Positions 1,931-10,206 of a stretch of DNA of 64,000 bases are shown here, piece by piece. Positions within the stretch are counted from its first letter, which is position 1. Every line of letters starts with the position of its first letter. Source of the DNA: an uncultured Bacteroidota bacterium (GTDB lineage: Bacteria; Bacteroidota; Ignavibacteria; UBA10030; UBA8401); NCBI GenBank assembly GCA_963717445.1, contig OY970334.1, forward strand, positions 3,891,406-3,955,405, written 5' to 3'. The position numbers and the translations under genes were made by a program. Under the pieces are notes generated by a model. The model saw nothing but the letters and a program-made list of their open reading frames with translations. It was not told where the DNA came from and did not search any database.

Positions 1931-2902
1931 ATGAAATTTCGCCCGTTAGGTAAAACCGGAATTAACGTTTCTGAAATCGGCTTCGGTGCATGGGGAATCG
2001 GCGGTCAAATGTGGCAAGGCTCGGATGACCAACAGTCAATGGCTGCGTTACGGAAAGCTGTCGAGCTGGGAGTGAATTTTTTCGACACCGCGCTTGCTTA
2101 CGGTGAAGGGCACAGCGAGCAGCTTCTTGGAAAACTTTTCCGGAGCACCAACAGGAAAATTTATATCGCAACAAAAGTCCCTCCGAAAAACCGCCAATGG
2201 CCTGCACAATCCGGCGTTCCATTTAGCGAAGCATTCCCCAAGAATTACATCATTGCATCGGCGAATCAAAGCCTGAAGAATCTTCGGATAGAATGTATTG
2301 ACCTTCTGCAGTTTCATGTTTGGAGTGATGAATGGGTCGGGGCGGATGAAATTTGGGAGGCGATTCGATTATTGAAAGCGGAAGGGAAGATCAAAGCATT
2401 CGGGATTTCAATGAACGACCACGAGCCTGCTTCGGTGTTAAAAGCCGCGAAAACCGGAATGATCGATACGTTTCAGGTGATCTACAATATTTTCGACCAA
2501 TCCCCGGAAGAAGAATTATTTCCGTACTGTCAGAAAAATGATATCGGCATTATCGCGCGCGTGCCGTTCGACGAAGGGGGACTTACCGGGCGGATCAAAC
2601 CGGATACTGCTTTTCCCACGAGCGATTGGCGTAATAAATATTTCCAAGGGGACAGAAAGCAGCAAGTCTACGACCGGGTTGAAAAACTTAAACCACTTCT
2701 CGGCGCTGAAGCAAAGACACTCCCCGAATTAGCTCTTCGGTTTATCCTTTCGCGGCCCGCAGTCTCGACCGTTATCCCCGGCATGCGAAGCATAGCCAAT
2801 GTTGAGACCAACACCGCCGTTTCCGATGGAAAATATCTTTCCGAAAAGCTGTTGAAAGAATTAAAAAAACATAAATGGGCGAGAAATTTTTACGGCAATT
2901 GA
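1931..2902 (+). CDS. aldo/keto reductase family oxidoreductase
   Basis: Typical AKR N-terminus (GFGAWGIGG…FFDTALAYGEGHSEQLLG), about 320 aa. Confidence 0.85.
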   Translation: MKFRPLGKTGINVSEIGFGAWGIGGQMWQGSDDQQSMAALRKAVELGVNFFDTALAYGEGHSEQLLGKLFRSTNRKIYIATKVPPKNRQWPAQSGVPFSEAFPKNYIIASANQSLKNLRIECIDLLQFHVWSDEWVGADEIWEAIRLLKAEGKIKAFGISMNDHEPASVLKAAKTGMIDTFQVIYNIFDQSPEEELFPYCQKNDIGIIARVPFDEGGLTGRIKPDTAFPTSDWRNKYFQGDRKQQVYDRVEKLKPLLGAEAKTLPELALRFILSRPAVSTVIPGMRSIANVETNTAVSDGKYLSEKLLKELKKHKWARNFYGN

Positions 2903-3444
2903 AGGAGCTTACCTCTAAATCGCAAAGATTGCTGGTTTCTTGTAAAGATTTCGAGAGCTTCTTTTTCTCTTGTAGGATGATTACTTCTAGGATGATAGTT
3001 TGATCCTTCCGATCCTTCGTTCGAAAAATCCTCGATATTGTTTTTAAATTGCAAACTCCCCAACACCGTTAAATTTGAAGGTTACCAGGTTGGAAGTAAT
3101 ACATGATGTCGGAGACCTTATCTAGGAAATCGCGATATGTTGAATCTTTTAGTGTAAAGCAGAAACCCACGGCCTATGGCGGTGGTTATGTTCAGTTGAC
3201 CATGCTTGTCATTCCGGTCGAGTCCCGCTTTCAGGCGGGACGAAGAACCGGAATCCAGTTCCGTTGATTGACTCTGGATTCCGCGTCAAGCGCGGAATGA
3301 CTTGCTTTTTCTTTTCAAAAGCCACCATCTTTGATGGTGGTCGTTTACTCCGATAAATTAAAAAGGTGTCCTCCATCTGCCCAGTCTAGCAGTGCTAGGA
3401 GGGGCGAGGCTTTTTTTTTACCGTGGAATTACCTAAATTGTCGC

Positions 3445-3777
3445 GTGCAGCCAGTTCGTATACAGCAGACCTCCGCGTCGGAACTCTCTATCGTGTGGGA
3501 CAACGGGCATTCCAGCCGGTATATGCTTCGGCATCTCCGCATGTCGTGTCCGTGTGCCTCCTGTAAAATGGAGCGAGAAACGGATCACGACAACGTTCTC
3601 CTTCCGATATTTAAAGCAGGAGAATTTCAGATTACCTCCGCAACGCCGGTGGGGCAGTATGCGATTCAATTTGTGTGGGCAGATGGACATAGCTCGGGTA
3701 TTTATACATTCGAGTACTTGCGAAGCCTGTGCCAATGCGGAGAGTGCTCGGTTGGTATTTCGTCGAATATTCATTAA
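3445..3777 (+). CDS. DUF971 family protein (gamma-butyrobetaine hydroxylase-like N-terminal domain)
   Basis: Repeated W-x-DGH-S-S-(R/G)-Y motifs plus CPCASC and CQCGEC cysteine pairs. The six-frame ORF begins at 3331, but that stretch overlaps a hairpin/terminator region. The likely start is GTG at 3445. Confidence 0.6.
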   Translation: MQPVRIQQTSASELSIVWDNGHSSRYMLRHLRMSCPCASCKMERETDHDNVLLPIFKAGEFQITSATPVGQYAIQFVWADGHSSGIYTFEYLRSLCQCGECSVGISSNIH

Positions 3778-3955: not shown

Positions 3956-5317
3956 ATGATGGCAAAATTCTCAGTCTCGGTATTGTTCATCGGTGTATTC
4001 CTGGCTCTTGTCACGACGAGCAGGGCCGGCGAGCCGATAACATCAACCGATATTTTTCCGTATCCCGTTACCAAAACAGTATTGGAAAACGGTCTCACAG
4101 TCCTGACAATTCCCTACGACAGCCCCGGACTGGTTGCGTATTATACCGTCGTGCGAACCGGTTCGCGCAATGAAGTCGAAGCCGGGCATTCGGGTTTCGC
4201 GCATTTCTTCGAGCATTGCATGTTCCGCGGCACGGTGAAATATCCCGCCGATAAATATAACGATATTTTGAAACGCCTCGGTGCCGATTCCAATGCCTTT
4301 ACGACCGACGATTGGACATGTTACCATATCGTCGCTAGCTCCGATGCCCTTGAGACGCTCGCGGATATTGAGAGCGACCGCTTCATGAACCTCAAATATT
4401 CTGAAGAAGCATTCAAAACGGAATCCGGGGCGATTCTCGGCGAGTACAACAAGAATTATTCTATTCCTTTTGAATCGATGTTCGAGACGTTGCAAAACAC
4501 GGCGTTCACGACACACACCTATAAACACACGACGATGGGTTTCCTCTCCGACATTAGGGATATGCCGAACCAGTACCAGTACAGTTTAAAATTCCACGAC
4601 CGCTTTTATCGTCCTGAAAACTGCACCGTCATCGTCGTCGGCGATGTGAACAATGACGACGTTGTACGCATCGTGAAAAAATATTACTCAGGATGGAAAA
4701 GGGGAACGTACGAGGTTCAAGTTCCCGTCGAGCCGCCGCAAACAGAAGAGAAGGTGGTGGTCATGCCATGGAAGAACAAGACGCTCCCGTATTTTCTCGT
4801 CGGCTACCATGTTCCGGCTTTCAGCGACACGGACGTCGAGCGTGCGTCGCTCGACATCCTCTCGCAGCTTGTGTTCTCCGAAAGCTCGCCCCTGTACCAG
4901 TCGCTGGTGATAAAAAAGCAGCTCGTAGAATTTGTGAGCGGCGGATCGGACGACCATCGGGACCCGTTCCTGTTCACAATAATGTCCCGCATCAAGGATG
5001 CAAAGAAGATCGATTCTGTGCGTGATGAGATCTACGCAGCAATTGAGACCGCCAAAACAGTTCCCGTCGATCCTCAAAAGCTTCAAGACATCAAGTCTCA
5101 CGTCAGGTACGCGTTTGCAATGCAATTGAACAAACCGGATAATGTCGCCGTTACGGTAGCCACCTATATCGCACTCACCGGAAATTATGAGTCGATGAAT
5201 AAAGTCTATTCTCTCTACGACAAGGTTACCGCCGAGGACATTATGCACGCGGCGAAAAAGTACTTCACGAAAGAAAATCGTACCGTCGTGATTCTTGAAC
5301 ACGAGGCGGCCCAATGA
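3956..5317 (+). CDS. M16 family zinc peptidase (pitrilysin-like, catalytic subunit)
   Basis: Inverted zinc motif HFFEH (GFAHFFEHCMFRGT). N-terminal signal peptide MMAKFSVSVLFIGVFLALVTTSRA. The internal ATG at 3956 is preferred over the ORF-track start at 3893. Confidence 0.85.
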   Translation: MMAKFSVSVLFIGVFLALVTTSRAGEPITSTDIFPYPVTKTVLENGLTVLTIPYDSPGLVAYYTVVRTGSRNEVEAGHSGFAHFFEHCMFRGTVKYPADKYNDILKRLGADSNAFTTDDWTCYHIVASSDALETLADIESDRFMNLKYSEEAFKTESGAILGEYNKNYSIPFESMFETLQNTAFTTHTYKHTTMGFLSDIRDMPNQYQYSLKFHDRFYRPENCTVIVVGDVNNDDVVRIVKKYYSGWKRGTYEVQVPVEPPQTEEKVVVMPWKNKTLPYFLVGYHVPAFSDTDVERASLDILSQLVFSESSPLYQSLVIKKQLVEFVSGGSDDHRDPFLFTIMSRIKDAKKIDSVRDEIYAAIETAKTVPVDPQKLQDIKSHVRYAFAMQLNKPDNVAVTVATYIALTGNYESMNKVYSLYDKVTAEDIMHAAKKYFTKENRTVVILEHEAAQ

Positions 5318-6822
5318 ACCTGCGAGCATATTCTTCCACCGTTTTTTTCTTCCTGACGCTTATGGTAACCACGTTCGCTTTCTCACAGCAGATCTCACGA
5401 ATAACGGAGGTGTATGTACCGAATTCGCCCCTCGTATCGTTCCGGGTCGTAATCCGCAGCGGGTCTATTAACGACCCGGCCGGGAAAGAAGGATTGAACG
5501 CGTTGACCGCTGCAATGATCGGCCAGGGAGGCTCGCAGTCTCTCTCGTATCAACAAATTGTCGACAAGCTTTATCCCTGGGCTGCCGAGATTCGCGTCCA
5601 GGCGGACAAAGAAGAGACGGCCATCATCGGCGAAGTGCACCGCGACCATCTGCAGGAATTTTTTGAGATATTCTGGGAGCTGATCGCTTCGCCCCGTTTC
5701 GACTCGGACGACTTCGCCCGGAATAAAGACGAACAGATCAATTTTCTTAAGAACACATTGAGGGGCAACGACGATGAGAATCTCGGCAAATCGGGGTTGA
5801 ATCTCTTGATGTATGCCGATCATCCGTACCGGACAGTCGTTGAGGGAACTGTGCAAGGTTTGAACTCCATAACGATCGACAACGTCAAGGCTTTTCACAA
5901 TGCAATGTACACTCAAAGCCGTATTGTCTTCGGCATCGCCGGCGGTTATCCCAAAGAGTTCATCGAGCAGGTAAAAAAAGATCTTGCCGGGCTGCCGGCC
6001 GGTTCGTATACGGAGGTTGCTCTTCCCACGCCGGCTCAGCCCGTCGGCGTCGAAGGGATGATCATCCAAAAGGAAAATCGCGCTACGGCAATTTCCTTCG
6101 GCTATCCAATCGACGTGACACGCGCGGATAAAGATTATTACGCACTGCTTGTCGCAAATTCCTACCTCGGCGAACACCGGACATTCAACGGCGTATTGAT
6201 GAACCATTTGCGCGGCGACCGCGGGTTGAATTACGGCGATTACTCGTACATTGAAAATTTTATCCAAGACGGCGGCTCGACGTTCCCCGAGCCGAATATC
6301 CCGCGCCGGCAGCAATTTTTCAGCGTCTGGATTCGCCCGGTCGAGCCGAAGAACGCTCACTTCGCCATTCGGGCCGCCATGCGCGAGGTTCAGCTCCTTG
6401 TGGACAGCGGGCTGACGAAAGAAGAATTCGAGACGACGAGAAATTTTCTGATTCATTATTCCAAATTATGGGTTCAAACGCAAAGCCGCAGGCTGGGGTA
6501 TGTGATGGATTCGGAGTTTTACGGTATTCCATACTATATCGATTATCTTGCACGACAATTGTCGGCATTGACGGTCGACGATGTCAATGCGGCGATCAAG
6601 AAGCACCTCCAGGCGAAAAATTATTATCTTTCAATCGTAGCAAAAGATGCCGGGCCGCTGAACGACGCTCTTCTATCGAACTCCCCTTCGCCGATCCAAT
6701 ACAACAACCCGAACGTCCCGGCCGAAATTCTTGAACAGGATAAGGTCATTGAGGTGCTGCCGGTCAACATCAACAAAGAGAATTTCAGTATCGTCCCATC
6801 GGGCGATTTGTTCGAGAAATAA
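5314..6822 (+). CDS. M16 family peptidase-like protein (second, likely non-catalytic subunit)
   Basis: 4-bp ATGA overlap with the upstream M16 gene. Signal peptide present. M16 fold-like length, but no HxxEH motif seen. Confidence 0.75.
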   Translation: MNLRAYSSTVFFFLTLMVTTFAFSQQISRITEVYVPNSPLVSFRVVIRSGSINDPAGKEGLNALTAAMIGQGGSQSLSYQQIVDKLYPWAAEIRVQADKEETAIIGEVHRDHLQEFFEIFWELIASPRFDSDDFARNKDEQINFLKNTLRGNDDENLGKSGLNLLMYADHPYRTVVEGTVQGLNSITIDNVKAFHNAMYTQSRIVFGIAGGYPKEFIEQVKKDLAGLPAGSYTEVALPTPAQPVGVEGMIIQKENRATAISFGYPIDVTRADKDYYALLVANSYLGEHRTFNGVLMNHLRGDRGLNYGDYSYIENFIQDGGSTFPEPNIPRRQQFFSVWIRPVEPKNAHFAIRAAMREVQLLVDSGLTKEEFETTRNFLIHYSKLWVQTQSRRLGYVMDSEFYGIPYYIDYLARQLSALTVDDVNAAIKKHLQAKNYYLSIVAKDAGPLNDALLSNSPSPIQYNNPNVPAEILEQDKVIEVLPVNINKENFSIVPSGDLFEK

Positions 6823-8968: not shown

Positions 8969-9102
8969 ATTATTTCTCGCAAAGCCGCGAAGATTTTTTT
9001 TAGAATTAATTTGCGACTTTGCGTCTTTGCGTGAGCACCCCTTTTTGAATTATTCAGAACTGTCAGGCTCATTTTATTCCACACCGTCAAAAATAAAGGC
9101 AA

Positions 9103-10206
9103 ATGAAAACACTCACTCGTGACCATGTGCTGGAAGCTTTGCGAAATGTGCGCGACCCCGACCTTCAAAAGGATATTGTCGCGCTTAATTTTGTTAAGGA
9201 TGTACAAATCAACGGGAATGACCTTCGCTTCACCATTGAGCTTACTACTCCATCTTGTCCTGTCCGCGACAAGTTAAAAGCTGAATCGGAAAAAGCAATT
9301 CGTTCCTCAATTTCCGGCATCGGTGCGATTGAAATTGCGATGACATCGAATGTTACGTCGCGGCAATCGGCACAGCCGGGTCCGCTGTTGACGGGCGTGA
9401 AAAACACGATCGCCGTCGCCAGCGGCAAAGGTGGCGTAGGAAAATCGACGGTTGCGGTCAACCTTGCCGTCGCGCTGGCAAGGGATGGTGCGAGCGTCGG
9501 CCTTATAGATTGCGATGTGTATGGACCGAGCATCCCACTGATGTTCAACATCAACGAAAAACCGAAACTTCATAATCAAAAGCTTCAGCCGCTTGAGAAA
9601 TACGGCGTGAAGGTCATGTCGATCGGCTTTTTGGTCGACCCGTTGCAGGCAGTGATCTGGAGAGGCCCGATGGCGAGCGGTGCGGTGCGGCAATTCATGT
9701 CCGATGTCGAATGGGGAACGCTCGATTACTTGATTTTCGACATGCCGCCCGGGACCGGCGATATTCAATTGACGCTGGTCCAGCAAATTCCGTTGACGGG
9801 TGCAGTAATTGTGACGACGCCGCAGGAGATTTCTCTCGCCGATGCCCGAAAAGGGTTGATGATGTTCAACAAAGTGAACGTGCCGATCCTCGGAATTATC
9901 GAAAACATGAGCTATTTTATCTGCTCCCATTGCGGAACGCGCGAGAATATTTTTGATGCCGGAGGAGGCGCGAAAGCGTCGAAAGAGCTTGGCGTGCCGT
10001 TCCTCGGAGAAATACCGATTGACACGAATATTCGTCTCGGCGGCGACGTCGGAAGACCTATCGTTGAATCTGACCCGAAGAGCCCGCAATCCGTGATCAT
10101 TTCACAGATCGCGCGCAACCTTGCGGCGCAGATCAGCATTAAAAATTTATCCCACAATGCAGCTCCGTCAATCGAGATTTCTTTGGGGGCGGCGCAACAA
10201 AACTGA
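9103..10206 (+). CDS. apbC: Mrp/ApbC-type Fe-S cluster carrier ATPase with N-terminal DUF59 domain
   Basis: Walker A AVASGKGGVGKST, CxxC motif (ICSHCG), and an N-terminal MIP18-like domain. Confidence 0.9.
   Translation: MKTLTRDHVLEALRNVRDPDLQKDIVALNFVKDVQINGNDLRFTIELTTPSCPVRDKLKAESEKAIRSSISGIGAIEIAMTSNVTSRQSAQPGPLLTGVKNTIAVASGKGGVGKSTVAVNLAVALARDGASVGLIDCDVYGPSIPLMFNINEKPKLHNQKLQPLEKYGVKVMSIGFLVDPLQAVIWRGPMASGAVRQFMSDVEWGTLDYLIFDMPPGTGDIQLTLVQQIPLTGAVIVTTPQEISLADARKGLMMFNKVNVPILGIIENMSYFICSHCGTRENIFDAGGGAKASKELGVPFLGEIPIDTNIRLGGDVGRPIVESDPKSPQSVIISQIARNLAAQISIKNLSHNAAPSIEISLGAAQQN

Follow-up and report, generated by a model that had tools for sequence, protein, structure and literature searches.

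A spacer of 542 nt between an aldo/keto-reductase gene and a DUF971 gene, containing several hairpins and a run of nine thymines (T9), raises the question of whether it encodes a structured RNA that belongs to the downstream gene or holds a sequence of another origin. The spacer occupies positions 2903-3444 of the window, by which we mean the whole 64,000-nt stretch of DNA that was analysed, from an uncultured Bacteroidota bacterium. The initial annotation regarded it as a candidate ncRNA upstream of the DUF971 gene, in a region that ends in T9. The features referred to in the following paragraphs are listed here by window position.

1931-2902: aldo/keto-reductase gene (PF00248), upstream of the spacer.
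2903-3147: AT-rich spacer outside the element (GC about 37 %; z = +1.2 for 2903-3148).
3148-3152, + strand: TTTAG, target and putative left cleavage motif in the flanking DNA (C_L TTAG = 3149-3152).
3153-3348, + strand: the 196-nt element, whose top strand is the + strand.
3163-3185, + strand: left end of the element, with the putative guide AAAC (3163-3166) and then the hairpin CCACGGCC-TAT-GGCGGTGG (3167-3185).
3208-3301, + strand: central multi-branch hairpin cluster, closed by GTCATTCCG/CGGAATGAC.
3302-3316, + strand: T-rich tract TTGCTTTTTCTTTTC, directly after the closing stem.
3318-3348, + strand: right end of the element, with the putative guide AAAG (3318-3321), the hairpin CCACCATC-TTT-GATGGTGG (3322-3340) and then TCGTTTAC.
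3411-3447, + strand: promoter-like block of the DUF971 operon, outside the element.
3445-3777, + strand: DUF971/GBBH-like_N gene of 110 aa with a GTG start (Pfam PF06155, E = 7.5e-24).
Downstream of the DUF971 gene: two M16 peptidase genes, giving a DUF971-M16-M16 operon.

The four stem-loops and the T9 string named in the initial annotation are all present in the sequence. These are the GTCCCGC/GCGGGAC stem-loop at 3222-3241, the stem GTCATTCCG/CGGAATGAC at 3208-3216/3293-3301, the hairpins ATTCCGCG/CGCGGAAT at 3278-3298 and CCACCATC/GATGGTGG at 3322-3340, and the string GGAGGGGCGAGGC with T9 at 3411-3419. Two further hairpins had been missed, CCACGGCC/GGCGGTGG at 3167-3185 and CGGAATCCAG/CTGGATTCCG at 3249-3283. 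Compared with dinucleotide shuffles, the whole 542 nt gives z = -2.9 on the + strand and z = -3.5 on the - strand, and all of the excess folding is carried by 3149-3348 (z = -5.4 as RNA, -5.8 as DNA). The stretches on either side, 2903-3148 (246 nt, z = +1.2) and 3349-3444 (96 nt, z = -1.3), are no better folded than shuffled sequence. The description of a 540-bp hairpin-rich region is thus right about the existence of the hairpins, which are non-random, and wrong about their extent: 2903-3444 is a 540-bp spacer of which only 200 nt form a hairpin cluster.

The initial annotation had proposed an Rfam scan and a comparison of the same spacer in relatives, and neither supports an ncRNA. Rfam yielded nothing at the gathering score for the whole window and only chance matches at E <= 10 for queries of 1 kb and 251 nt; the best match (Rfam 15), to mir-462, scores 18.9 bits against a gathering score of 90 and is attributed to chance. 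A tRNA/tmRNA scan found nothing near 2903-3444, and the small open reading frames of the spacer (3103-3267 on the + strand, 3209-3376 and 2890-3066 on the - strand) have no Pfam match. The slot between the reductase and DUF971 genes itself varies among relatives (window 2903-3444; L002 3887-4807; L003 3752-4849; L005 4914-5000). A reverse-strand methyltransferase gene fills it in L002 and a reverse-strand Laminin_G_3 gene in L003, and just 87 bp separate the two genes in L005. The element and its stems are absent from the orthologous spacer of L002, L003, L005 and L006, the relatives with the same gene order, an outcome that the initial annotation had itself named as counting against its ncRNA.

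The left part of the spacer, 2903-3148, has a single match among the compared loci, in L001, which apparently represents the same strain (100 % identical over about 3 kb). A tblastn comparison of this part with the Laminin_G_3 and methyltransferase proteins that fill the slot in relatives detected no protein remnant. Short tandem repeats are found here, CTTGTAGGATGAT/CTTCTAGGATGAT at 2969-2996 and GATCCTTC twice at 3002-3018.

The T9 run has a different context from that of the hairpin cluster. It is part of an arrangement of T9 (3411-3419), 14 nt, TAAATT (3434-3439), 5 nt and GTG (3445-3447), and the same spacing is found in L002 (5085-5123), L003 (5030-5069), L005 (4965-5003) and L006 (5124-5162) as T8-9, 14 nt, TA(A/C)ATT, 5 nt and GTG, whatever sits upstream. 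Since the distance from T9 to the DUF971 start is kept even with nothing upstream, T9 is not the 3' end of the hairpin structure; judged by its spacing, it is one component of the promoter-like block upstream of the DUF971 coding sequence. We considered T9 as the intrinsic terminator of an upstream RNA and rejected it. A window hairpin at 3379-3405 does precede T9, with 5 nt between them, but the relatives compared have no conserved hairpin before their T run, which is itself conserved at a fixed distance from the DUF971 start, and a terminator scan did not flag T9. The -10-like hexamer lies 5 nt from the GTG, and for this reason the DUF971 mRNA may be leaderless and GUG-initiated.

These observations bear on a single long cis- or trans-acting ncRNA, or leader, that would extend over 2903-3420, end at T9 and be tied to the DUF971 gene. 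Such an RNA would agree with the better-than-shuffled fold of the 542 nt and with the hairpin at 3379-3405 before T9. It is nevertheless very improbable, because the excess structure is confined to an inserted repeat, relatives with the same gene order do not have this sequence, T9 stands at a fixed spacing to TAAATT and GTG with no conserved hairpin before it, and Rfam offers no match. The candidate ncRNA is accordingly not supported: its stems are those of a 196-nt mobile repeat with a proven empty site, described below, and its T9 is part of the promoter-like block.

The preference of the initial annotation for GTG 3445 over 3331 as the true start of the DUF971 gene is borne out by three observations. 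In L005 a TGA stands in frame two codons ahead of the homologous GTG, DUF971 homologues of 107-122 aa begin at that GTG, and within the long open reading frame the first residue of the Pfam domain is residue 47. The gene call in the database, P0001 (147 aa), takes ATG 3334 as its start, a codon that falls within the right-end hairpin of the element. Because GTG 3445 is the start and ATG 3334 sits in the element, the N-terminus of P0001 is an artefact of the insertion, and the element thereby explains a wrong DUF971 N-terminus in a database gene call. We also note that gene callers extend the DUF971 open reading frame through the block to non-homologous upstream starts, which gives products of 132-163 aa.

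A first hint of the repeat nature of the cluster comes from a second assembly. The 3-kb contig L001 (GCA_049589135.1) matches the window without a difference over about 3 kb and then breaks off within the hairpin cluster, where it shows a variant hairpin and departs from the window at three of its last 16 bases; this break points to an assembly graph breaking at a repeat. The element explains short-read assembly breaks at this point in this species. One genome per species was scanned with a 21-mer of the cluster (GTCATTCCGGTCGAGTNCCGC), which gave nine matches in all: three places on one 1.59-Mb contig of the Bacteroidota MAG MFD01689.bin.1.50, three contigs of a second Bacteroidota MAG, MFD05379.bin.2.14, and three (L011, L012 and L015) that were set aside as chance matches in coding DNA. 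A scan of JGI metagenomes with a 20-mer of the right end likewise gave nine matches, seven of them contigs with the element and two (L018 and L022) chance matches in coding DNA. In the window itself nhmmer finds a single copy of the element, and a candidate second copy at 42.3 kb was discarded as a chance match within coding sequence.

Near-identical copies with unrelated flanks are present in L008, L009, L010, L013, L014, L023 and L024, and variant copies in L007, L016, L017, L019 and L020/L021. The family thus occupies at least 11 independent insertion sites in three genomes and in metagenomes, with sharp common boundaries, and exact-word scans indicate few copies per genome. Eight full copies measure 200 nt when TTAG is counted, and a ninth, the variant L021, measures 201 nt; identity among the full copies is about 90-99 %, and no relation is seen between their flanks. 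The interior varies by modules from copy to copy. In place of the three-branch cluster of the window, L019 (133 nt) has a single perfect 11-bp hairpin; the left arm of the central cluster is a different one in L021, L017 is 5'-truncated, and L007 lacks 44 nt of the central cluster and carries a nested insertion of about 265 nt (5972-6236). Searches of plasmid, phage and viral collections gave no match to the element, and a full-text literature search with words of the element sequence returned no paper. The family is previously undescribed, in that it has no match in Rfam, in the plasmid, phage and viral collections or in the searchable literature.

The nested insertion of L007 has the inverted ends GGGTAGTGTTACA / TGTAACACTACC with AAGAAC on both sides, and a 55-nt piece of it is also found just left of the L009 copy (L009 5353-5407).

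The boundaries of the element were examined in the aligned copies and at an empty site. Nine of the 11 copies are preceded by TTAG, L008 by TGAG and L021 by TTCG; position -5, one base further out, is T in 11/11 copies, and all copies end in ...GGTCGTTTAC, so that every copy ends GTTTAC. The empty site was sought through homologues of the GpsA encoded beside the L008 copy, on contigs of 94-99 % relatives. L043, L044 and L045 encode a GpsA 98-99 % identical to that of L008, and the element site is empty in all three. The left flank of L008 (ending ...TGAG) aligns to position 1283 of L043, and the right flank (A[T/C]ATCTGAAAAGTTGTCTC...) starts at 1284; this junction was set by separate local alignment of each flank, since MAFFT misaligned two neighbouring indels. 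The motif is present and uninterrupted in the empty site, where TTTTTTGAG runs directly into ACATCTG, and T(T)GAG thus pre-exists there. The L008 insert is exactly 196 nt (TGTGAAGCAG...GGTCGTTTAC) and lies directly 3' of T(T/G)AG; the site has neither gained a duplication nor lost bases. The spacers of L025-L035 are unrelated in sequence to that of L008 and provide no empty site. For the window copy, the predicted empty junction joins GTTGAATCTTTTAG to TCCGATAAATTAAAAAGG. The target rule is a loose one, given one proven insertion at TTGAG and one copy at TTTCG.

The element is a multi-copy, precisely bounded mobile insertion that has neither terminal inverted repeats (TGCGAAGCAG... versus ...GGTCGTTTAC) nor a target duplication, and its identity as a mobile repeat is close to certain. 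The hairpin cluster should be masked as such and not pursued as a regulatory RNA. In L013 (5159-5162) and L023 (6393-6396, reverse strand) the TAG of TTAG is the stop codon of the upstream open reading frame; the element directly adjoins the gene end, which is undisrupted.

A small, gene-less, hairpin-rich and multi-copy intergenic element could also be a classical MITE of a DDE transposon or a derivative of the IS91 or IS110 type. Insertion into specific short targets, again without duplication, is also a property of IS91 and IS110 relatives. The termini that are not inverted repeats argue against this origin, the empty site without target duplication excludes a DDE-type MITE, and the guide/cleavage complementarity 5' of two same-orientation hairpins, described next, is specific to IS200/IS605; a DDE, IS91 or IS110 origin is extremely improbable.

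Both ends of the element carry a subterminal hairpin. The family consensus of the left hairpin is CCACCGCC-TGT-GGCGGTGG, and the two end hairpins have perfect 8-bp stems in the consensus; the left hairpin of the window copy has one G.G mismatch. Together with the preceding AAA(C/G), the end hairpins are direct repeats (71 % over 24 nt), and by reading of the sequence the direct match, AAAsCCACC..C-T.T-G..GGTGGT, is better than the inverted one. The element terminates in TTAC (3345-3348), the putative right cleavage motif. Cleavage would occur 14 nt 5' of the hairpin foot at the left end and 8 nt 3' of it at the right end, and the guide/cleavage pairs would be AAAC/TTAG on the left, where the assignment assumes the hairpin foot CCACC and an extended stem with a bulged C would shift the guide, and AAAG/TTAC on the right. 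As the boundaries had been fixed by the alignments and the empty site before the pairing rule was applied, the match is a genuine test of the rule. The central cluster comprises three inner hairpins, at 3211-3254 (enclosing 3222-3241), 3249-3283 and 3278-3298. As regards the lagging-strand template, on which the top strand of an IS200/IS605-type element would lie, GC skew in the window is weak and follows the gene strand, and the orientation of the open reading frames that flank the copies is mixed, with no clear bias.

These ends resemble those of IS608, whose TnpA binds subterminal hairpins on one strand and whose cleavage sites pair with the four bases 5' of each hairpin foot (PMC3201880, PMC5934647). 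In IS608 the guide G_L, AAAG, pairs with C_L, TTAC, and G_R, GAAT, pairs with C_R, TCAA; of the two cleavage sites, C_L is external to IS608, 19 nt on the 5' side of the foot, and C_R internal, 10 nt on the 3' side (PMC3201880, PMC5934647). The element shares with IS608 and the IS200/IS605 group the same-orientation subterminal hairpins, the lack of terminal inverted repeats and of target duplication, and insertion 3' of a fixed tetra- or pentanucleotide that is kept in the left flank. Its right pair AAAG/TTAC is identical to the left pair G_L/C_L of IS608, and its left pair AAAC/TTAG differs from G_L/C_L by a complementary double change at position 4. The asymmetry is also the same, with the left cleavage site far from the hairpin and the right one near (14 and 8 nt in the element, 19 and 10 nt in IS608). 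The differences concern the target, TTTAG instead of the TTAC or TTGAT of IS608/IS200-IS605, the stems, which are perfect over 8 bp where the IS608 palindromes are imperfect, and the host, an uncultured Bacteroidota of an Ignavibacteria-like lineage that differs from the hosts of known systems. Unlike IS608, the element contains no tnpA, tnpB or iscB, and its interior consists of variable GC-rich hairpins followed by a T-rich tract. Ends of this kind, combined with insertion at a set motif and without target duplication, define IS200/IS605 transposition. Gene-less derivatives of IS200/IS605 elements (PATEs) are an established class (PMC10055086).

On this end anatomy, 3153-3348 is probably one copy of a 196-nt gene-less IS200/IS605-type element (PATE). 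A Y1 (HUH) transposase encoded elsewhere in the genome would move it as single-stranded DNA; the enzyme would bind the two similar subterminal hairpins and cut where AAAC pairs with TTAG in the left flank and where AAAG pairs with TTAC at the right tip. The copy is inserted 3' of TTTAG in the reductase-DUF971 spacer. None of the loci examined has a Y1 transposase, TnpB or IscB gene between these ends, and a tblastn search with an IS200 TnpA, for which an approximate query sequence was used, found no match in 203 kb of locus DNA. The window copy may no longer be mobile, because its left hairpin is mismatched. If this reading holds, the family illustrates IS608-style guide/cleavage logic cleanly in nature, with TTTAG as target, in an uncultured Bacteroidota lineage and with a proven empty site.

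A related enzyme suggests another origin: a domesticated RayT (TnpA_REP) could have spread the element as a REP/BIME-like mosaic that does not derive from IS200/IS605. RayT is also a Y1 HUH enzyme, so that most features of the ends are compatible with it, and RayT-type Y1 genes are common in this lineage. The centre of the element is modular and built from short GC-rich palindromes, and hairpins of the same style (ATTCCSG...CSGGAATGAC) stand alone in the relative L006. The element thus resembles REP/BIME sequences in its short GC-rich extragenic palindromes arranged in variable mosaics, in the presumed Y1 HUH enzyme and in the occurrence of RayT in close relatives. The criteria for REP/BIME sequences are a conserved GTAG 5' of an imperfect palindrome, pairs of REP and inverted REP, and a required stem mismatch (PMC3333891). 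The element departs from all of these: the hairpin foot is preceded on its 5' side by AAAC or AAAG instead of GTAG, the two end hairpins repeat each other in direct orientation and do not form a REP/iREP inverted pair, and the stems are perfect in the consensus, without the required mismatch. Moreover, the whole 196-nt unit moves with fixed ends, the copy number per genome appears low in exact-word scans, and the REPs that flank both RayT genes examined are unrelated to the element. A REP/BIME origin is unlikely.

The RayT-type Y1 genes (PF01797) are found at 583-1098 in L036-L038 and at 1501-2001 in L039-L042, and have their own REP hairpins (GTAGGTCA... in L036). The RayT of L036 and its homologues were considered as the mobilising enzyme of the element and rejected, as their REPs are unrelated to it. 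The RayT gene of L036 sits between ispD and plsY, where close relatives have a peptide deformylase. In L006, a more distant relative, isolated hairpins similar to the centre of the element (ATTCCCG...CGGGAATGAC, GTCATTCCCGA...TCGGGAAT) occur at 4946-5020 and 9668-9790, one upstream of the DUF971 gene and one in another spacer; they have a common 19-nt core in opposite orientation.

The two ends of the element have not diverged equally. In copies retrieved by the central 21-mer, departures from the consensus are 5-6 times more frequent in the left 59 nt (counted over element positions 5-59 of the alignment) than at positions 81-200 (23/330 versus 8/720, Fisher p = 8e-7). The left-end changes are mostly transitions (G>A, T>C, C>T), and several of them damage the left hairpin. 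The pattern could reflect selection on the right part, as a terminator or an RNA scaffold, or a mutable left end. Covariation was found at one of 58 pairs, the copies being too similar for it to be informative.

This pattern is relevant to the proposal of a functional RNA, encoded by the whole element or by its conserved 3' 140 nt, which would be either an omega-RNA scaffold used in trans by TnpB or IscB with the 3' flank as guide, or a multi-copy small RNA. PATEs are reported to encode omega-RNAs often (PMC10055086). That the right part is better conserved in a family in which several left hairpins have already been damaged hints at a constraint other than mobility, and the strong fold (z = -5.4) agrees with a structured RNA; if true, an omega-RNA-like scaffold acting in trans would explain why the 3' 140 nt are better kept even where the left hairpin is broken. 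The omega-RNA-bearing PATEs of Geobacillus stearothermophilus provide a precedent, as they are likewise gene-less, keep the left and right ends of an IS200/IS605 family and have a strongly conserved right part (Meers et al. 2023). The element differs from them in that no omega-RNA homology or TnpB partner was found and in its internal terminator-like signal. No Rfam motif, including those of the IS605-orfB or HEARO type, matches at E <= 10, no promoter-like site was found inside the element, and no locus examined has a tnpB or iscB gene. A terminator-like stem and T tract (3293-3316) lie upstream of the right end, and transcripts should therefore stop before any guide; covariation is lacking as well, in copies too alike. 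A functional RNA is distinctly unlikely.

The same signal suggests an effect of the element on the host locus. A terminator scan flags 3278-3298 with its tail, and in L019 the perfect 11-bp stem is followed by the same T-rich tract. The closing stem and the T-rich tract would terminate transcription behind the reductase gene, and since the element is co-oriented with both neighbouring genes, termination of read-through from the reductase gene is probable. The DUF971-M16-M16 operon would keep its own promoter-like block, T9 included.

A second small repeat family, built around inverted repeats of the CGCAAAG...GCGCAA type, was encountered at window 8973-9035, at 951-1043 and 659-686 of L017, at 1311-1398 of L043 and at about 3550-3650 of L028. 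In L043-L045 an 88-nt copy lies 27 nt right of the empty site, and L008 has none. Because of this difference the CGCAAAG...GCGCAA-type repeat also looks mobile, and polymorphic between strains that are 98-99 % related.
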